A stretch of 64,000 nt of DNA from an uncultured Candidatus Saccharibacteria bacterium (GTDB lineage: Bacteria; Patescibacteriota; Minisyncoccia; Phycocordibacterales; DATDWN01): contig CAYXZA010000001.1 in assembly GCA_964469605.1 (NCBI GenBank), forward strand, positions 71,274-135,273, written 5' to 3'. The notes beneath the pieces were generated by a model. The model did not search any database and was not told the origin of the DNA. It saw only the letters and a program-made list of their open reading frames with translations. Below, piece after piece: positions 9,096-60,239 of the stretch. Position numbers and translations under genes: made by a program. Within the stretch, counting starts at the first letter, position 1. Every line of letters starts with the position of its first letter.

Positions 9096-9168
9096 GCCCT
9101 TGTAGCTCAGTCGGTAGAGCAGCTCCCTTTTAAGGAGATGGTCGCAGGTTCGATTCCTGCCAGGGGCA
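9096..9168 (+). tRNA. tRNA-Lys, anticodon TTT, no encoded CCA
   Basis: Near-identical architecture to canonical tRNA-Lys: GCCCTTG-TA-GCTCAGTCGGTAGAGC-A-GCTCC-CTTTTAA-GGAGA-TGGTC-GCAGGTTCGATTCCTGC-CAGGGGC-A. Confidence 0.85.
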
Positions 9169-9544
9169 CAAAATTTTCGAAGTAAATTTTGTGCAACTGA
9201 GCAAAGCATAGCTTTGCGAGCAGGAATCGAAGGAATATGCGGTTTACAAAGTCAGCAGACTTTGTCGCAGATTCCAGTTTTATTTTTTATTAAGTGACGA
9301 CGAAATAAAAAATAAAAAGATTCCTGCCAGGGGCACAGAAAACGAAGTTTTATGTGACACTGGAGAAAAGTGATGTTATCACTTTTCGTCAGGAATCGAA
9401 CAGATTTCCGGTTGACGAAGTCAGCAGACTTTGTCGGAAATCTGGTGCCTAGAAAATTTTAGTTTGACGAAACTAAAATTTTCGAGGGAGATTCCTGCCA
9501 GGGGCACAAAATCTTCAAAGTAAATTTTGTCCAATTAAAAAACC
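9152..9544 (+). repeat. three direct copies of the tRNA-Lys 3' end with two ~170-bp hairpin-rich intervening units
   Basis: 'gattcctgccaggggcaca' occurs at 9152-9170 (within the tRNA), 9319-9337 and 9490-9508. Copies 1 and 3 share ~55 nt including the downstream 'aaat(t/c)ttc(g/a)aagtaaattttgt(g/c)caa'. The intervening units contain conserved nested hairpins (GAC(A/G)AAGTCAGCAGACTTTGTC). Confidence 0.8.
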
Positions 9545-21851: not shown

Positions 21852-21962
21852 AAAGCATTTTCATATTGTTTTTTAGAGACTTGCGAAGTTGACTGAACTG
21901 AGCACGAGGAATTTTTCAGTAGAAAAATATCCGTGCTCTAAAAAACAATATGAAAATGCTTT
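21852..21962 (+). repeat. palindrome-nested conserved element, copy A (core 21872-21943)
   Basis: Core 'TTTTAGAGACTTGCGAAGTTGACTGAACTGAGCACGAGG...ATCCGTGCTCTAAAA' flanked by exact ~24-bp inverted arms 'aaagcattttcatattgtttttt' / 'aaaaaacaatatgaaaatgcttt', followed by a T-run, directly 3' of the PBP gene. Confidence 0.75.
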
Positions 21963-23317: not shown

Positions 23318-23558
23318 ATTATTAATACTATTAGTCCTGTTTATTTGTGTAAAACTTATAAAAATGGCTTATTTTATGGTTTTTTTAATAAACAGTCTGT
23401 GGATAAATGTTGATTATATGTGTATATATTATGTCAATAAAAGATAATACACAAGTCTGTTTTTATAAATATTAACAAATCAACATATTATTCAGTTTTA
23501 AATCATAGGTTATTGATAACATATCCACATACATATACACATATATATCCACACCCAC
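23318..23558. promoter_or_regulatory. candidate oriC segment: DnaA boxes plus an AT-rich unwinding region in the dnaA-dnaN intergenic space
   Basis: Perfect box TGTGGATAA (23398-23406, reverse of TTATCCACA). Two 8/9 boxes ATATCCACA (23521-23529, 23545-23553). A ~80% AT stretch lies at 23440-23520. Confidence 0.5.
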
Positions 23559-23657
23559 CTTTTAAGTATGAAGTTTAGAACACGGATAAATTTTTGCTAA
23601 AATTTTCCTCGTGCTCGGTAGAGTCACTCGCAAGTTTCTAAACTTTATACTTAAAAG
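23559..23657 (-). repeat. palindrome-nested conserved element, copy C (inverted orientation)
   Basis: Reverse complement matches the copy A/B core with a compensatory G:C to A:T change in the terminal stem. Inverted arms 'cttttaagtatgaagtttagaa' / 'ttctaaactttatacttaaaag'. Lies 3' of dnaA, adjacent to the DnaA boxes. Confidence 0.75.
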
Positions 23658-29430: not shown

Positions 29431-29533
29431 CCTATAAAGATATAATTTTAGAGACTTGCGAGGTTGACTGAACCGAGCACGAGGAAAATTTTAGCAAAAA
29501 TTTATCCGTGCTCTAAAATTATGTCTTTATAGG
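29431..29533 (+). repeat. palindrome-nested conserved element, copy B (core 29446-29517)
   Basis: Core is near-identical to copy A. Inverted arms 'cctataaagatataatttt' / 'aaaattatgtctttatagg'. Sits inside the T4SS-like operon between the 166-aa gene and the 353-aa gene. Confidence 0.75.
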
Positions 29534-44380: not shown

Positions 44381-44989
44381 ATGACACTTTTTGTGATAGT
44401 CACGGCGGTGATCTGCTCGTGGTATTACTTCTCAGTTGTGGTGCCTCGGCGTAAGGAACGAGAGAGGTTCGACAAGGCTCTCGGGGCTTACAATACCGAG
44501 CGGGATCGGGTTGAGGCTCTGCCAAGACTCGACACTCGTTGGCTGATGCGTGTACCGGGGGAAATAATGGACAAGAATTCGATTTGCCGCTCCTACGGGA
44601 CGCGATATGATCGGATTTTCATCGTCGATGAATGCGGTAACGGGTGGGTTGGATTGGTCACCCCGGAAATTCTCAAAGACTTAACAGCTGGAGAGTATAT
44701 CCGTTGTAACTACTTCATTCCCTTTCGGGGTGATGGTGAATCCAGTGCTGGAAAACCAGTGACTGTCGACAACCAGATAATCTATGTTTATCCTATCTGG
44801 ATGAATGAGGGAGTCAACACCCTAGACTGGAGTCTGTGGGCACGAATCGAGAAAAACTTTTACAAGCATTTGCAGCAATGGAACTATCAGTCTGGTCTCG
44901 GCGAGCTCAACGGGCATATGCAGGAGTTTTGCGAGAAGCGGGATCATTTCAACAGACTCGCTGCTGTGGTGGGGATTGAGGTGAAGTAA
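44381..44989 (+). CDS. foreign-composition (GC-rich) membrane-anchored protein of unknown function
   Basis: ~52% GC against the ~30% background. N-terminal TM 'LFVIVTAVICSWYYFSVVV'. GC-rich codons (CGC, CTC, GGG). Confidence 0.55.
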   Translation: MTLFVIVTAVICSWYYFSVVVPRRKERERFDKALGAYNTERDRVEALPRLDTRWLMRVPGEIMDKNSICRSYGTRYDRIFIVDECGNGWVGLVTPEILKDLTAGEYIRCNYFIPFRGDGESSAGKPVTVDNQIIYVYPIWMNEGVNTLDWSLWARIEKNFYKHLQQWNYQSGLGELNGHMQEFCEKRDHFNRLAAVVGIEVK

Positions 44990-45507
44990 TGAAAATTATC
45001 TCAATTCTCACTGCTCTGTTTCTTGTTGGTTGTGGTGGTAAGCAAAAAAAAGCTGAAAGCCACAAAGACACACCGATCAAAACAACAATCCCAGCACAGG
45101 TGGTCCATGAGGTGAAGAAGGTGGGGCCTGGATTCTGGAAAGAGTTCGGGGTCTCTAGTTCTGTGTATCGCCCTGATGTTGAACATGGAAGTGTATATGG
45201 TGTAGATGGATCGTTACTTGCCTTCAAGACCATTGATGGTGTGGTCTGGTTCGGAAACTTCGAGCCACGAGACAACAAACCTCCGCTCGAAACCCGCAAG
45301 GTGTACCTTGTGTGCATAAGTGGCAACCCTGCAAAAGGTTGTGGTTACGCAATGCGCAACTTGGCCGTCGCTCCGCCACAATGTGTGCTGGAGGAAAGAG
45401 TCGTGGGTTGGAAGGAAGCCCGAGGCTTCCTGGAGCCCAGGACTCCAAATTCAGAACTCTTTTGGCTGAATATCGAGGACTTTCTTCGATCTAGAGAATG
45501 GAAGTAG
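44989..45507 (+). CDS. foreign-composition lipoprotein of unknown function
   Basis: Lipobox 'ALFLVGCGG'. The ATG overlaps the TAA of the upstream ORF. Same GC-rich composition. Confidence 0.55.
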   Translation: MKIISILTALFLVGCGGKQKKAESHKDTPIKTTIPAQVVHEVKKVGPGFWKEFGVSSSVYRPDVEHGSVYGVDGSLLAFKTIDGVVWFGNFEPRDNKPPLETRKVYLVCISGNPAKGCGYAMRNLAVAPPQCVLEERVVGWKEARGFLEPRTPNSELFWLNIEDFLRSREWK

Positions 45508-46945: not shown

Positions 46946-47062
46946 TACCTATCCCTTAAAAGCATAATATTTAGAACACGGATAAATTTTTACTAAAATT
47001 TTCCTCGTGCTCGGTAGAGTCACTCGCAAGTTTCTAAACATTATACTTTTAAGGGATAGTGT
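46946..47062 (-). repeat. palindrome-nested conserved element, copy D
   Basis: Core 46970-47038 is near-identical to copy C. Inverted arms 'atcccttaaaagcataatat' / 'attatacttttaagggat'. Directly 3' of nusA. Confidence 0.75.
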
Positions 47063-52441: not shown

Positions 52442-52452
52442 TAAACCTATCC

Positions 52453-52551
52453 CGTTAAAAGTATAATTTTAGAGCACCGATAAATTTTTGCTAAAATTTT
52501 CCTCGTGCTTGGTAGAGTTACTTGAAAGTCTCTAAAATTATACTTTTACGG
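52453..52551 (-). repeat. palindrome-nested conserved element, copy E
   Basis: Core 52467-52537 (divergent copy). Inverted arms 'ccgttaaaagtataatttt' / 'aaaattatacttttacgg'. Directly 3' of rny. Confidence 0.7.
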
Positions 52552-53082: not shown

Positions 53083-53937
53083 TTACGTCGCTGATTGTTC
53101 TTGAACCGATTGTTTTGCGAGCCAACGTGAGAGATACCATGCTCCGCAGAGCGCGATTCCTACGCCGACCCACTGAACGGGCGTGAGATGTTCGCCAAGC
53201 ATGACACTTGCGCCAAGGATGACCGCAGGGGTTTCTCCTTGGGCAAGGACACTCGCTTCCGTCGTGGGCAAATTCTCGAACGCCATCAGATTCGCAATCC
53301 AATAGAGGAATCCTCCGACGAATGCGAATCCGAGAACGAGCATAATCAGTTTCGGTTCGGCGATGGCTGACCACGACGCACCAGCACTCATCACGAGGCC
53401 GAGCGTTCCCATGCCGATGCAGGCATAGAAACACTTTTGGAGCGAGTTCCCCTTCGCGCGAGCAAAAAATTCGTAGATGATTCCGTTCATGATGGTTCCG
53501 AACAGCGTCCATCCGAATCCTGCCCACTGAAAATGTCCGCCCCAACGAGCCATCACTACACCGCCGAGCATCAACACCAGTCCAATGATGGACGCTGGAG
53601 AAATTCGCCGGCCTAAGAAAGCGCCGATCACGAGGTTCACCAGCGGGGTCGCGGTAATGATGATGATTGTCGGTCCCACGCCCCAGTGCCGAATTCCCTC
53701 GAAAAGTCCGAGTGTGGCGAACGGCATGGTCAGTGCAATAAGATACGTATACTTGTCCACACGTCCGACGACTCCACGAAGTCCGATGAGTGCCATTCCG
53801 GCAGTTAGGAATCCGCGAAAGACCATCAGTTGCGTGGGCGTGAACACACTTAGAACGTTGACGAAAGGCAGGGCCAACCCTGCCGTTAGCCAAATGCCCA
53901 TGACCCCGAAGAGTCCCAGCATGGTTTTACGATGCAT
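53083..53937 (-). CDS. EamA/DMT-superfamily transporter, foreign GC-rich composition
   Basis: Ten hydrophobic helices in two 5-TM halves. ~58% GC. The alternative 303-aa Arg-rich frame (52982..53893) was rejected. Confidence 0.65.
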   Translation of the reverse strand: MHRKTMLGLFGVMGIWLTAGLALPFVNVLSVFTPTQLMVFRGFLTAGMALIGLRGVVGRVDKYTYLIALTMPFATLGLFEGIRHWGVGPTIIIITATPLVNLVIGAFLGRRISPASIIGLVLMLGGVVMARWGGHFQWAGFGWTLFGTIMNGIIYEFFARAKGNSLQKCFYACIGMGTLGLVMSAGASWSAIAEPKLIMLVLGFAFVGGFLYWIANLMAFENLPTTEASVLAQGETPAVILGASVMLGEHLTPVQWVGVGIALCGAWYLSRWLAKQSVQEQSAT

Positions 53938-55087: not shown

Positions 55088-55723
55088 TTACACCCGAAGA
55101 TGAGCAAGTGACCGAGCAATGTTTGCTCTGGCTTGCGTTTCATACTTGTTGCGGAAGGATTGCGTCGAGTAGATATTCGGTCGATCTAGAAACGCCTTCA
55201 GGATCGCCAAACGTCCGGCAATAAACTGATCTTCCGGTACCCACTCATACTCCTTACGTACTTGCTTCTCATATTCATCGAATCTTTCCTCAGGTTGACC
55301 TAGAATTGAGAGATCGATGTCAACAATAAGTTGAACATCTGAATCGGTGGGAGTCGCTGAATGCTTCGTTGCTATGATGAGATTTGCCACCGATTGTCCG
55401 AGGTTGTCGGGCAACGAAGCATTTCGCACCATTTCCATGGCGAGTGCTGCACTTCGCTCCTCACTGTCCTTGGTTTTGGTATCGTAGATTGCGTCATGAT
55501 ACCAGAGAGCCAATTCAACAGTATCAGGATTTGTTGCGAGGTGTCGGCCACGCTCGAGTTCGTCGAGGCAGAGTCTGATGTGTTGGAGTGTGTGGTACAC
55601 TCGGTGCGGTTCAGAGTATCGCACAACAAGCTCGTTGTAGACCACGCTTGCGTCTCCTTGCGCACCGAGGTGTTGCCACAACGCTTGCCATTGTTGTTCA
55701 TTTCGATTTAGCATTGTAAGCAT
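55088..55723 (-). CDS. HD-domain metal-dependent phosphohydrolase (small ~200-aa family), GC-rich
   Basis: 'YHTLQHIRLCL...WYHDAIYD' His/Asp metal ligands. ~50% GC. Confidence 0.6.
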   Translation of the reverse strand: MLTMLNRNEQQWQALWQHLGAQGDASVVYNELVVRYSEPHRVYHTLQHIRLCLDELERGRHLATNPDTVELALWYHDAIYDTKTKDSEERSAALAMEMVRNASLPDNLGQSVANLIIATKHSATPTDSDVQLIVDIDLSILGQPEERFDEYEKQVRKEYEWVPEDQFIAGRLAILKAFLDRPNIYSTQSFRNKYETQARANIARSLAHLRV

Positions 55724-56204
55724 CCTTCAGTTTCTCAAACACTGGTTCGGGGAGATAATTCTTCACTATTGTCGCCCATCCTTCAGGACCTATCAACCTC
55801 TTCACCATGCTTGAACTGACTTCGGCAATTCCACGTGGTGGCATCAGAAAAACTGTTGTGATGCCAGAGTTTAAGTCGCCGTTGATATTTCTCATCACCC
55901 GCTCGTATTCGTAGTCACTTTCGGTTCTGATGCCACGAAGTATGAATTGTGCACCTACCGATTGAGCGTAGGTGATAAGAAAATGATTGGTGAAACTACT
56001 GACTTCGACATTCGGAAACTGTTTTGTTGATTGTCGAAGCATTTCAAGTCGCTCATCAACCGAGAACATACAGTGCTTCTCTGGATTAATACCAATTGTT
56101 ACGAAAAGTTTGTCGAACAAAGCCGACCCTTGCTTGATCATCCAAATATGACCGACAGTTGGTGGATCAAATGTTCCAGCATAAACCGATGTCTTCTTAG
56201 TCAT
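55698..56204 (-). CDS. coaD: phosphopantetheine adenylyltransferase
   Basis: 'SVYAGTFDPPTVGHIWMI' (T/HxGH nucleotidyltransferase) and 'ILRGIRTESDYEYE'. Start trimmed to the Met before the motif. GC-rich. Confidence 0.8.
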   Translation of the reverse strand: MTKKTSVYAGTFDPPTVGHIWMIKQGSALFDKLFVTIGINPEKHCMFSVDERLEMLRQSTKQFPNVEVSSFTNHFLITYAQSVGAQFILRGIRTESDYEYERVMRNINGDLNSGITTVFLMPPRGIAEVSSSMVKRLIGPEGWATIVKNYLPEPVFEKLKDAYNAKSK

Positions 56205-56375
56205 CACCCTTTCTTTTTTTGGAAAATCACCCTTTGAATCAAACATTTCTTCAGACAACGATTCGTTAAGTTCAGAGAATAAATTCATACTTCCTCCTAG
56301 TTAAAGAACTTTCTCCCTATATTATGTATTTGTTGACAGAAATGTTCAATTATGTATAATAGAAACTATACAACT

Positions 56376-57137: not shown

Positions 57138-57142
57138 ATCTG

Positions 57143-57214
57143 TGCGGGATGGGAGAATCGAACTCCCGTATGCACATTGGAAGTGTGCCATTCTACCACT
57201 AAACTAATCCCGCA
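57143..57214 (-). tRNA. tRNA-Gly, anticodon TCC
   Basis: Reverse complement GCGGGAT-TA-GTTTAGTGGTAGAAT-GGCACA-CTTCCAA-TGTGCA-TAC-GGGAGTTCGATTCTCCC-ATCCCGC-A. Confidence 0.8.
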
Positions 57215-57229
57215 ATAATAGACAGTATA

Positions 57230-57892
57230 TCACAAAACTTTATTTATCCAAGCCATTATTCTTCTGTGTAAATAAACACCAAATTCTTTGTTTCCTAAAC
57301 TTTTTATTGTCATATGAGCTGTTCCATATGGAAGTTTGTTTATATTTCTTATTTTTTTATCTGTTCTTTTGTCTATTGTGCATTTATAAAACTGATCTCT
57401 TGGTATTTTGGTTTCTTTTGACCAAAAATTAATGCAATCTTCTTCTTTGTTGTCTGGGTATATATGTAATCTAATAGCAAAGTTTTTATTTTTTATACCA
57501 AAACAAGTTTTAAACCATTTAATTGTAAATTTAATCACTTTTGGGTCTGAGTTTATAATCCTTGTTAAGTTTATGGTTTTACTTCCCTCTCCTATGTATA
57601 TACCAATTCCAATCATCATAATATCTCTTTTTGTTAAATAGTTTATGTCTTTTTCTGATTGTTTTTTTGCTTTTTCAATATTTTCAAATTTTATTTTAAT
57701 TTTATGTAATGTTGATGCTAATCTAGCCTCTTTTATTTTATCCAAGGTATATTCATTTGGTTTAAATTCAATATCAGATAACCATTTACTCAATGTGCTT
57801 TTTGATAATGCAAATTTTGTTTTTATATAACTGTATGAATAGCCTAATTTTCTTAGTTCTATTACTTTTTTCTTTATTTCTGTATTATACAT
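57230..57892 (-). CDS. HTH-domain protein with possible LAGLIDADG-like motif
   Basis: N-terminal 'ELRKLGYSYSYIKTKFALSKSTLSKW' HTH; central 'IGIGIYIGEGSK' loosely resembles the LAGLIDADG/GxxDGEG motif. Confidence 0.4.
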   Translation of the reverse strand: MYNTEIKKKVIELRKLGYSYSYIKTKFALSKSTLSKWLSDIEFKPNEYTLDKIKEARLASTLHKIKIKFENIEKAKKQSEKDINYLTKRDIMMIGIGIYIGEGSKTINLTRIINSDPKVIKFTIKWFKTCFGIKNKNFAIRLHIYPDNKEEDCINFWSKETKIPRDQFYKCTIDKRTDKKIRNINKLPYGTAHMTIKSLGNKEFGVYLHRRIMAWINKVL

Positions 57893-57975: not shown

Positions 57976-59172
57976 ATGAAAAAGATTTTGTTTTTAGTAT
58001 TTTTTTGGGTTTTTTCTATAATTATCTTTGTTTATAATTACCAAAGTAGTGGTTTTCAAGGTGTTAATAATAATAATAATAATAATTTAAATACAATCTC
58101 CCCTGCTTTACCGTCCAATAATAATCTAGAAATCAAAGATCAGGAAAATAACCAAATATCATCTAAAAATACAGAAACTATACTCTCAAAAGCTAGTTCG
58201 ACTAAACCTGTTTCTGCTACCACATCAACTGTAAATATTAAAAAAACTAGTCAGACTGCAACAAACATAAAAACACAAACATCAAACGAGGCGACTTCTG
58301 TTGTTGTAAATAAAAATGTTGATTTTTCTTTGGTAAATGAGCAAGTTAGAAAATCTCTTGTAAATATAATGTGCTCGGTCTCATCTAGTGGCACCATATC
58401 CCCCATAACAGGAAGCGGAGTTTTTGTTTCAAATGATGGTGTTATACTGACAAATGCACATATTGCTCAGTATTTTTTATTGAAAGATTTCAATGGTCAA
58501 AAAGATTATTTAGACTGTGTGATAAGGACAGGATCCCCTGCTTATCCTACATACAAAGCCAAATTAGTTTATATTTCTCCTGATTGGATTTTTAATAATA
58601 AAAAACTTTTGTTGGAAGAAAAACCTCTTGGAACTGGGGAATATGATTATGCTTTTTTGAAAATAACAGAAAGAGTTGATAAATCAGATCTAAAAGCTGT
58701 TGATTTTATCTCATTAAATACAGATGATTCTAATCTAAAAAAAGGTAATCCAACTATTTTAGTCTCCTACCCCGCTGGTTTTTTAGGTGGGATTGAAATT
58801 TTACAATCTTTGTATCAGTCTAGTGCAGAAACTTTTATAAAAGATGTTTTTACATTTAAAGAAAATACAATAGATTTGATCTCTGTTTCCGGTACGGTAA
58901 TTTCCCAAAAAGGTTCTTCTGGTGGAGCGGTTGTTGATTCTAAGTCAAATCTTTTGGGTATAATATCAGTTAGTAGTGATGATTTTTTTACAAAAGATAG
59001 GGATTTGAGGGCTATTACAGTGGCATATATAAATAGGGATCTAGAAGCTAAAACTAAAACAAATATTAGAAATCTGATATTAAATGCTGATTCTGTTTCA
59101 AATGTATTTGAAATTTCCCTATTCTCTTTACTGAAAAAAACACTAGAAGACAGTATTTTGGGTAAAAATTAA
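57976..59172 (+). CDS. exported trypsin-like (S1) serine protease
   Basis: Signal/TM, Asn/Ser/Thr-rich linker, 'GSGVFVSNDGVILTNAHIA' (His box) and 'ISQKGSSGGAVVD' (Ser box). No PDZ domain. Confidence 0.6.
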   Translation: MKKILFLVFFWVFSIIIFVYNYQSSGFQGVNNNNNNNLNTISPALPSNNNLEIKDQENNQISSKNTETILSKASSTKPVSATTSTVNIKKTSQTATNIKTQTSNEATSVVVNKNVDFSLVNEQVRKSLVNIMCSVSSSGTISPITGSGVFVSNDGVILTNAHIAQYFLLKDFNGQKDYLDCVIRTGSPAYPTYKAKLVYISPDWIFNNKKLLLEEKPLGTGEYDYAFLKITERVDKSDLKAVDFISLNTDDSNLKKGNPTILVSYPAGFLGGIEILQSLYQSSAETFIKDVFTFKENTIDLISVSGTVISQKGSSGGAVVDSKSNLLGIISVSSDDFFTKDRDLRAITVAYINRDLEAKTKTNIRNLILNADSVSNVFEISLFSLLKKTLEDSILGKN

Positions 59173-59191
59173 ATTTTTTAAATAAAAAAAA

Positions 59192-59556
59192 CACCTCGGG
59201 TTGGTTACCGAAGGTTGTTGGCGAGGGGTCGGGGGACGAAACTGCCCCGAACACCCCTCGCCTTGGGCACCCCTCCTCTGTGAGGAAGGGGTTGGCAATT
59301 TTCCGAGGTTTGGCCAAACCTCGGAGTCGAAAACCTTATCATGCATCTTGCCAAAGAATGCACTTATCTCCTCGTCCCGTTTTGGGATTTAGAGAGGGTT
59401 TTCCAATCTGGTTTTAGAGTTGCGCGCAAACTCAAAACCAGAAAAAAATCCACCGGATCCCGGCAGGGACTCCGGCGAAACCTCCCATGGCAGGATCTCC
59501 TTTCGGAAATCGTGCCAAGTGCGAAGATGATTGGGAGGCAAAGATCATCTCTAGTT
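59192..59556. other. GC-rich non-coding block with dense stable hairpins (candidate structured RNA or decayed foreign DNA)
   Basis: ~55% GC. Contains GGCGAGGGGT...ACCCCTCGCC enclosing CGGGGG-acgaaact-GCCCCG; CCGAGGTTTGG/CCAAACCTCGG; GAGTTGCGCGCAAACTC. Only short mutually overlapping ORFs. Confidence 0.35.
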
Positions 59557-59714
59557 AATATATTACTACATTATCATCTTTTTGTCAACTAAAAATATTG
59601 ATTTTTTCAAAAAAGTTTTTTTATTGTATAAAAAATGGCTTAAATAAAAGATATTTTTGATATTATTTAAAAATGTATAAATCCCATTTTGTTAAAAATA
59701 TTTTTTAATGTAAT

Positions 59715-60239
59715 ATGATATCTATGTTAAAAAAAATTTGGGATAGATTTTGGAATTTTTATGATGGTCACTATAATCTAACACTAGGTATTACACTTTG
59801 TTTATTTTCACTTCAAATCGTTCATTTATTTTGGCTCTTTACAAATGTTATTTGGTTTAAATTGTTTTCTTATAACCTGTATACTTTCGGATCAACTTTT
59901 GAAAAATTGTTGGTTTTAGTGGATTTTACAGAAATCCCTGCCCTACTGGCTGCTTCTTTGGTTTATATAGATGATCTTCGTAATAATTTCAACTATAAAT
60001 CAGTTATTTTTCTAATTCTTTTAAATAGCCAATGGTTGCACCTCTTTTGGATTACAGATGAGTTTGTTGTTTCAGAATTTACAGAAAAAGTTTTATTCCC
60101 TTCTTGGCTTGCTTGGCTAGCCATACTTATAGATTATCTTGAAGTTCCTGTTATCCTAGATACTTTATCTAAATTTTTAAAACATTTAAAAGAAGGTCAA
60201 ATAAAAACCGCTTTAAATGTGATAAAGGAAAGAGACTGA
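59715..60239 (+). CDS. hypothetical polytopic membrane protein
   Basis: 174 aa with four hydrophobic helices. Confidence 0.45.
   Translation: MISMLKKIWDRFWNFYDGHYNLTLGITLCLFSLQIVHLFWLFTNVIWFKLFSYNLYTFGSTFEKLLVLVDFTEIPALLAASLVYIDDLRNNFNYKSVIFLILLNSQWLHLFWITDEFVVSEFTEKVLFPSWLAWLAILIDYLEVPVILDTLSKFLKHLKEGQIKTALNVIKERD

Follow-up and report, generated by a model that had tools for sequence, protein, structure and literature searches.

The DNA analysed here is a stretch of 64,000 nucleotides (hereafter the window) from contig CAYXZA010000001.1 of an uncultured Candidatus Saccharibacteria bacterium. This organism belongs to the Patescibacteria, or candidate phyla radiation (CPR), whose members have tiny genomes. 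The subject of this study is a GC-rich block of 365 bases at positions 59192-59556, with 53.2% GC against 30.7% across the window. It sits in a 542-bp intergenic slot. On the left is a gene for a trypsin-like serine protease (57976-59172, plus strand), which is convergent with the RNA predicted below, and on the right a gene for a conserved Patescibacteria membrane protein (59715-60239, plus strand), which probably begins only at the ATG of 59724. The membrane-protein gene retains its own TG-extended -10 promoter, intact and beside the ATG; read on the plus strand, the block stands upstream of that promoter. A first, sequence-only reading of this DNA had singled out the block as a GC-rich, non-coding region packed with hairpins. 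The GC excess is real, the measured value being slightly lower than the 55% first given.

The block has little of the character of a gene for a protein. Seven open reading frames (ORFs) of 45-83 residues cross it and overlap one another; the judgement that none is credible stands, the earlier count of four frames does not. GC content by codon position is flat (0.51/0.52/0.56), with no codon periodicity, and the longest stop-free stretch extends over 102 codons of the plus strand. The stems named at the outset were all found. GGCGAGGGGT/ACCCCTCGCC is complementary at 10 of 10 positions and contains a CGGGG/CCCCG pair, TCCGAGGTTTGG/CCAAACCTCGGA forms a perfect 24-nt palindrome and TCTGGTTTTAGAGTTGCG/CGCAAACTCAAAACCAGA has arms of 18 nt.

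These stems belong to an unusually stable fold. The minimum free energy (MFE) of the block is -159 to -166 kcal/mol (-165.6 kcal/mol on the minus strand) versus -118 to -123 kcal/mol for dinucleotide shuffles. The resulting z-scores are -5.6 to -6.4 for the plus strand and -7.2 to -8.1 for the minus strand, and none of 100 shuffles folded as well. As controls, seven equal-length pieces of GC-rich coding islands, folded on both strands, gave z-scores of -0.4 to -3.0; for AT-rich coding DNA the score was about 0. Since the block exceeds both its shuffles and the GC-rich coding controls, its structure is specific to it and not a by-product of GC content. The predicted folds contain 9 G.U pairs on the minus strand versus 3 on the plus strand, an asymmetry in the direction expected for a minus-strand RNA although the numbers are small.

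The minus strand also carries the recognizable transcription signals. A sigma-70-type promoter (59560-59588, minus strand) is composed of a -35 box TTGACA (59588-59583), a 17-nt spacer and a -10 box TAATAT (59565-59560), which together predict a transcription start at about 59553. It faces into the block and ends 4 nt short of it. Sites combining a perfect TTGACA, a spacer of 16-18 nt and at least 10 of 12 matches number ten in 128 kb (both strands), and by a rough estimate the probability that one falls no farther than 40 nt from an edge of the block, on either side, is about 0.006. Between 58900 and 59900 there are two terminator-like sites, both on the minus strand and both inside the block. 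The internal one (59442-59479) is a 13-bp hairpin of -19.7 kcal/mol (H3, 59479-59449) followed by seven U (59448-59442). It resembles a textbook intrinsic terminator and would release a short RNA of about 113 nt. The terminal one (59184-59215) is a weak hairpin of -7.3 kcal/mol (H9, 59215-59193) followed by a G and eight U (59191-59184), and terminates 12 nt from the protease stop codon. One and the same strand consequently has a promoter directly ahead of the block and an intrinsic terminator closing it, each as a consensus-level match. Promoter, terminators and fold together predict a full-length non-coding transcript of about 365 nt (59185-59553, minus strand).

Along this putative transcript the helices follow one another as local units. 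The 5' domain (59480-59539, -29.7 kcal/mol, pair probabilities 0.96-1.00) consists of H1 (59539-59532 paired with 59487-59480) enclosing H2 (59517-59488), a 12-bp hairpin with a GAAA loop. An alternative 7-bp stem (59550-59544 with 59531-59525) would, if formed, make a pseudoknot with H1. Beyond the internal terminator-like element come H4 (59407-59442), a 14-bp hairpin with arms CUGGUUUUGAGUU...AACUCUAAAACCAG, and H5 (59329-59403, -21.9 kcal/mol, pair probabilities 0.86-0.99), a three-way junction with a 7-bp closing stem and two inner hairpins. H6 (59302-59325) is the perfect 24-nt palindrome, folded as a 10-bp stem with a GGCC loop; H7 (59269-59292) is the hairpin ACCCCUUCCUC-ACA-GAGGAGGGGU, and H8 (59220-59262, -30 kcal/mol) combines a perfect 10-bp outer stem with a 5-bp inner one. 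No antiterminator alternative emerged when the 3' arm of the internal terminator was kept from pairing, and downstream on the minus strand there are only junk ORFs, the next gene being convergent. For these reasons the 5' domain has no evident riboswitch character. An 18-codon ORF, MGGFAGVPAGIRWIFFWF (59432-59488, minus strand), has an AAGGAG 8 nt upstream and is probably there by chance.

The block was compared with the known families of structured RNA. At gathering thresholds, Rfam 15 recognized only six tRNAs in the whole window, and permissive E-value searches with the block and each of its halves, on both strands, gave no credible match; the Rfam check proposed with the sequence-only reading thus leaves the block without a known RNA family. 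RNase P RNA, whether of bacterial type A/B or archaeal, was not listed at E ≤ 10 on either strand, its P4 boxes (GGAAAGUCC / ACAGAA-type) are absent from both strands by inspection, and the 5' and 3' ends of the block make only a 3-bp contact (P = 0.41) in the MFE fold. ARAGORN found no tmRNA in the window, nor did Rfam. There was no Rfam match to 6S RNA or SRP RNA, the fold being a chain of local hairpins. No riboswitch family appeared at E ≤ 10, and no regulated minus-strand ORF is present. The initial failure to recognize a tmRNA, an RNase P RNA or a riboswitch agrees with the ARAGORN and Rfam searches and with the inspection of boxes. Self-splicing introns of group I or II gave no Rfam match, and the block is intergenic, not within a host gene. 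HEARO is the Rfam family for the RNA associated with IscB. Neither HEARO, omega RNA nor IS200/IS605 elements were matched in Rfam, and no iscB, tnpB or tnpA is adjacent, the neighbours being the protease, the membrane protein and a LAGLIDADG-like ORF.

Four further candidates were examined and rejected. The best Rfam match, RAGATH-7-assoc, scored 29.6 bits against a cut-off of 88.5 and covered mostly AU-rich sequence of the protease gene. A match to the Pab19 H/ACA RNA (20.5 bits, E = 0.69) merely reflects a long GC hairpin. The plus strand offers a CRISPR repeat/anti-repeat-like fusion (GGUUUUAGAG...CUCAAAACC), with no Cas9-size ORF or array nearby and no plus-strand terminator. A CsrB-like sponge was considered for the GGA motifs, which are mildly enriched and by inspection lie mostly in stems.

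Searches for relatives of the block, as protein or as DNA, gave nothing. Its concatenated six-frame translation matched none of 5.8 billion proteins at E ≤ 1. A HMMER search of 1.84 billion representatives with the longest stop-free frame yielded just two artefacts, both tandem-repeat proteins whose scores are inflated by summed weak repeats. An exact look-up of the seven ORFs showed that none had ever been called as a protein. With no translated match and no called protein, a decayed coding sequence, one of the outcomes envisaged for this block, is very unlikely. At the DNA level, blastn against plasmids and phages found no match, six exact 20-22-mers found no homologue among viral contigs, and viral contigs scanned with back-translations of two stop-free frames were equally negative. 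One 20-mer searched against metagenome contigs gave 3 chance matches of 21-22 nt inside unrelated genes, and one 19-mer searched against the species genomes of the Genome Taxonomy Database (GTDB) gave a single chance match of 21 nt in a metagenome-assembled genome of the Desulfonatronovibrionaceae. The source genome itself is unmatched in either of these two large collections. The block is not similar to the rest of the window, to its other islands or to four donor-like contigs (L016-L019). The power of such k-mer searches is low: at 85% identity, the level seen for an EamA transporter cassette of the window, only 5-7% of 20-mers are shared, so that a handful of diverged homologues could easily be missed. 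Because these low-power searches found no homologue, the fold has no covariation or conservation to support it.

The slot itself is informative. The membrane protein has more than 1000 Patescibacteria homologues, and the contigs carrying its closest relatives show the same gene order with a varying slot content. The slot measures 46 bp in L001 (neighbour-protein identity 87%) and 38 bp in L013 (78%). In more distant relatives it holds accessory genes, namely a two-gene RelE/ParE-like module on the minus strand in L002-L009 (65%) and a YafQ/RelB pair, also on the minus strand, in L014 (63%). Alignment with L001 and L013 shows that about 510 bp of the window (approximately 59176-59685) have no counterpart in these closest relatives; this DNA comprises the block and about 130 bp of AT-rich sequence carrying the promoter. 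As L001 and L013 keep the flanking genes around a short slot, the block is a lineage-specific insertion, two separate losses being the less parsimonious alternative. Five conspecific contigs from Logan and NCBI (L020-L024) all end before the slot. The suggestion that the block is foreign DNA gains from the finding that the two closest relatives lack it at this position and from a GC content that fits a GC-richer Patescibacteria donor.

The AT-rich part of the insertion also contains an extra copy of native intergenic sequence like that of L001. The 46-bp intergenic/promoter sequence of L001 occurs twice to the right of the block (59590-59636 and 59668-59716), at about 75-78% identity each. This duplication could stem from the insertion event or from recombination with a related strain, and, the sequence being AT-rich, its significance is uncertain. 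The accessory genes in the slot of the distant relatives extend over 3358-3871 in L002 (a RelE/ParE-like gene and an antitoxin) and over 1414-2120 in L014 (YafQ, RelB and an ORF of 53 residues). In tblastn the block bears no similarity to these type II toxin-antitoxin (TA) proteins. The space between the protease and membrane-protein genes forms a hotspot of accessory modules.

Other GC-rich islands (47-56% GC in a genome of 31% GC) lie to the left of the block. Island 1 (44381-45507) contains two intact ORFs, a second island (53083-53937) encodes an intact EamA transporter and a third (55088-55723) an intact ORF of 211 residues, with which coaD (55698-56288) is grouped. More than 100 homologues of the EamA protein, 67-92% identical to it, occur in Patescibacteria, and its gene is found at 85-86% DNA identity in unrelated neighbourhoods on L016 (48% GC) and L018 (47% GC). 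The hairpin of its 3' terminator is conserved in both of these copies, and each time the cassette stands directly downstream of a tRNA gene of 84-85 nt. By its sequence relations EamA has the appearance of a gene cassette that travels among CPR lineages. Such identity to GC-richer CPR contigs indicates that the genome imports cassettes from GC-richer relatives, which makes a foreign origin of the block likely. Island 1 and EamA are each immediately preceded by a canonical -35/-10 promoter, as is the block, and 8 of the 10 perfect-TTGACA promoters fall within 44-60 kb, around imported cassettes. In front of native genes a TATAAT or TGnTATAAT box often stands no more than about 10-15 nt from the ATG (for example at 57976, 7232, 25021, 19654 and 32532), the tRNA genes have TG-extended -10 boxes without a -35 box, and 37 of 39 long ORFs are not preceded by a Shine-Dalgarno-like sequence, the exceptions being the island genes at 44381 and 53937. 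The arrangement of these signals suggests that native mRNAs are mostly leaderless or have very short leaders. The comparison of the block with "decayed" islands does not hold, since the islands are intact, promoter-equipped coding cassettes and the block folds unlike any of them. The other proposal of the sequence-only reading, an unclassified structured RNA, fits the absence of Rfam and tmRNA matches, the exceptional folding and the frame of minus-strand promoter and terminator.

The block may accordingly be read as an imported gene, complete in itself, whose product is a structured non-coding RNA encoded on the minus strand, an interpretation that we favour tentatively and put slightly short of an even chance. 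We infer transcription, and the strand used, from the motifs and the fold. The sigma-70-type promoter at 59588-59560 would start minus-strand transcription near 59553, and the RNA would fold as a chain of very stable local hairpins. The 5' domain, with its GNRA-capped hairpin and possible pseudoknot, would form first. The strong hairpin followed by seven U could then release the short form of about 113 nt, and polymerases reading through would traverse five further helical elements to the hairpin and eight U near 59185, giving the long form of about 365 nt. With no ORF downstream and a convergent next gene, such an RNA would not be a cis leader; if it has a function, it would work in trans or serve simply as a stable RNA. 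The unit would have entered a hypervariable intergenic slot used by TA pairs in more distant relatives, its probable source being a GC-richer Patescibacteria donor, as for the neighbouring GC-rich cassettes.

Several points weigh against this interpretation. No homologue was found by any route and all the evidence comes from a single sequence. The promoter and terminators are consensus matches in an AT-rich genome, where A/T runs are common, and the terminal hairpin is weak. The G.U bias of 9 to 3 is modest (one-sided binomial about 0.07). The fold lines up near-perfect local hairpins one after another, without any long-range helix to close it, an architecture as typical of terminator clusters, palindromic DNA elements or young DNA as it is of elaborate functional RNAs. 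If the import was recent, as for EamA, intact stems need no selection in the host. The block stays a single-sequence orphan, and as such is a moderate lead and no discovery.

To our knowledge almost nothing is known of CPR non-coding RNAs beyond the universal ones. A gene of the kind favoured here would represent a new family of structured RNAs, passed horizontally from one CPR lineage to another and lodged in a TA slot, and would offer a concrete target for metatranscriptomics. A bolder version makes of it the first example of an RNA-only mobile cassette among Patescibacteria, a new class of structured RNA of about 113/365 nt that occupies TA slots with an addiction-, defence- or counter-defence-like role; this is a long shot. 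Even an inert block would, together with the cassettes, show an AT-rich CPR genome importing promoter-equipped units from GC-richer CPR, and cassette import bears on gene exchange among reduced, episymbiotic bacteria.

The alternative that survives best, although we regard it as rather unlikely, sees in the block an inert passenger: a foreign fragment of GC-richer CPR DNA, brought in by recombination and non-functional in this host. The fragment could derive from a non-coding region, an RNA gene or a cluster of untranslated regions and terminators of the donor, and its structure would then reflect its role there. Such an origin accords with the absence of the block in the closest relatives and with a genome that takes up GC-rich Patescibacteria DNA without compositional amelioration. 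It also accords with the lack of homologues and of any sign found of selection at host level, and with the extra native-like intergenic copy in the AT-rich part, which suggests messy recombination. However, a near-consensus promoter abutting the block and two hairpins with U-runs on the same strand represent more order than a random fragment should have, and the other imports of the window are complete, working-looking cassettes with no debris among them.

The block might instead act as DNA, either as a non-autonomous mobile element, be it a miniature inverted-repeat transposable element (MITE) or one associated with palindromes of the IS200/IS605 type, or as a palindrome cluster like the repetitive extragenic palindromes (REP) and bacterial interspersed mosaic elements (BIME), whose hairpins would matter in single-stranded or cruciform DNA. 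Several perfect palindromes, including the 24-nt one with its symmetric GGCC centre, hairpins at either end, a lineage-specific insertion at an AT-rich intergenic site and strongly negative fold z-scores on both strands would all suit such an element. Yet the block is single-copy in the window (blastn, word size 7), and its hairpins all differ, unrelated beyond short shared arms, with no unit repeated in the 64 kb as expected of REP/BIME or MITE. The search for terminal inverted repeats and a target duplication gave only AT-rich, low-complexity matches in the flanks. The neighbourhood contains no gene for a transposase, TnpB or IscB, HEARO was not among the Rfam matches listed, and strand-biased G.U pairs are unexpected in DNA palindromes. 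A DNA-level element is thus improbable.

A structured mRNA for a tiny hydrophobic peptide, that is an RNA-based selfish module resembling a type I toxin, is suggested by the 18-codon ORF, which is hydrophobic and is preceded by the AAGGAG already described. The Shine-Dalgarno sequence and the AUG are both buried, in helices H2 and H1, and such burial is typical of type I toxin mRNAs. RelE/ParE-like and YafQ/RelB modules moreover stand on the same strand in the slot of L002 and L014. Against this, the ORF crosses the terminator hairpin and its seven U, the F-rich tail of the peptide being the translated U-run, and no plus-strand antisense promoter was found inside the block. The host genes are without a Shine-Dalgarno sequence in the 37 of 39 cases mentioned above, no homologous peptide was found in the six-frame search of the 5.8 billion proteins, and purine-rich stems are expected to yield GGAG-like strings. 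We hold this explanation to be very improbable.

An assembly artefact, whether from a chimeric join or from the collapse of foreign reads into the contig, deserves little credence. The source is apparently a metagenome assembly, and the retrieved conspecific contigs, which stop short of the slot, give no independent cover. But both flanks are syntenic with the relatives, the block is embedded together with AT-rich promoter and terminator sequence, and an internal chimera of 365 bp between collinear host flanks would presumably be an unusual error. Finally, a pseudogene, i.e. the frameshifted remnant of a GC-rich coding gene, could be imagined from the stop-free stretches of up to 102 codons on the plus strand and the coding nature of the neighbouring GC-rich islands, but it is largely refuted already and has next to no likelihood left, given the empty six-frame search and the artefactual HMMER matches, the flat codon-position GC, the absence of similarity to the TA proteins of the slot and fold z-scores far beyond those of real coding islands.

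Other features of the window were noted in passing. An intergenic element of about 100 nt is dispersed in five copies over the 64 kb, three on the plus strand (23558-23657, 46954-47053, 52452-52551) and two inverted (21871-21943, 29446-29518). It has a conserved core hairpin, GAGCACGGAUAAAUUUUUGCUAAAAUUUUCCUCGUGCUC, with three compensatory pairs in one copy, and a long outer stem that differs between copies yet remains complementary, with fold z-scores of -4 to -9. The copies follow directly after gene ends in either orientation and have no Rfam match at gathering thresholds; the element may represent either a bidirectional terminator of complex design or a small hairpin element capable of moving. 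The 3' end of a tRNA-Lys gene (9096-9169) is duplicated about 340 bp downstream (9152-9196 versus 9490-9534, 93%), and a second repeat pair lies close by (9221-9272 versus 9390-9441, 83%), with a local GC bump of 38%. An element integrated at the tRNA could have left these duplications as att-like scars. An ORF of 220 residues (57230-57892, minus strand) abuts a tRNA-Gly gene (57142-57213). It has an N-terminal region like a helix-turn-helix and a LAGLIDADG-like motif, IGIGIYIGEGS, and in Pfam only a weak match to B277. LAGLIDADG-like ORFs similar to it adjoin the EamA cassette in L016.

Among known systems, a first comparison comes from screens of AT-rich genomes, in which long GC-rich intergenic regions (GC-IGRs) are reported to be enriched for structured non-coding RNA genes (PMC6429828, PMC8632094, PMC11109978). 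The orphans of these screens resemble the block in being long, intergenic, GC-excess, non-coding and strongly folded, and in belonging to no family. Motifs are named there only when several homologues support a consensus structure, whereas the block is one sequence with no covariation. The block also differs from the candidates described there in its host, a member of the Patescibacteria, and in being a recent insertion and not a conserved locus. A second comparison is with ROOL, GOLLD, raiA, OLE and HEARO, the block sharing with them a length of hundreds of nucleotides, many helices and a variable region. These are large, ornate bacterial non-coding RNAs whose function is either not known or was assigned only recently; ROOL, GOLLD and HEARO often occur in mobile or variable regions. 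None of these families is among the Rfam matches of the block, even at E ≤ 10. The block has no long-range closing helix, and its hairpins are near-perfect and local.

With stand-alone small RNA (sRNA) genes, including those borne on islands and prophages, the block has in common a promoter, a structured RNA, a hairpin with U-run, an intergenic position and a lineage-specific occurrence. In contrast to such genes, it contains an internal terminator followed by about 250 nt more of structured sequence, and in contrast to typical base-pairing sRNAs it is much longer and more structured, with no inferable target or chaperone. Type I TA systems such as hok/sok and ibs/sib recall it through their folded RNA, buried Shine-Dalgarno sequence and AUG, tiny hydrophobic ORF and, here, a TA slot; the block departs from them in that the search for an antisense promoter was negative, its ORF and a terminator overlap, homologues are lacking and the host apparently does without Shine-Dalgarno-led translation. 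A last comparison is offered by the GC-rich cassettes of the window itself. These encode intact proteins with many Patescibacteria homologues at 70-92% identity and fold no better than ordinary coding DNA, whereas the block is devoid of an ORF and of any detectable homologue and is extreme in its foldability. Nevertheless, the block shares with these cassettes its high GC content, a -35/-10 promoter upstream and a terminator at the end, and like them it was inserted singly between conserved host genes.

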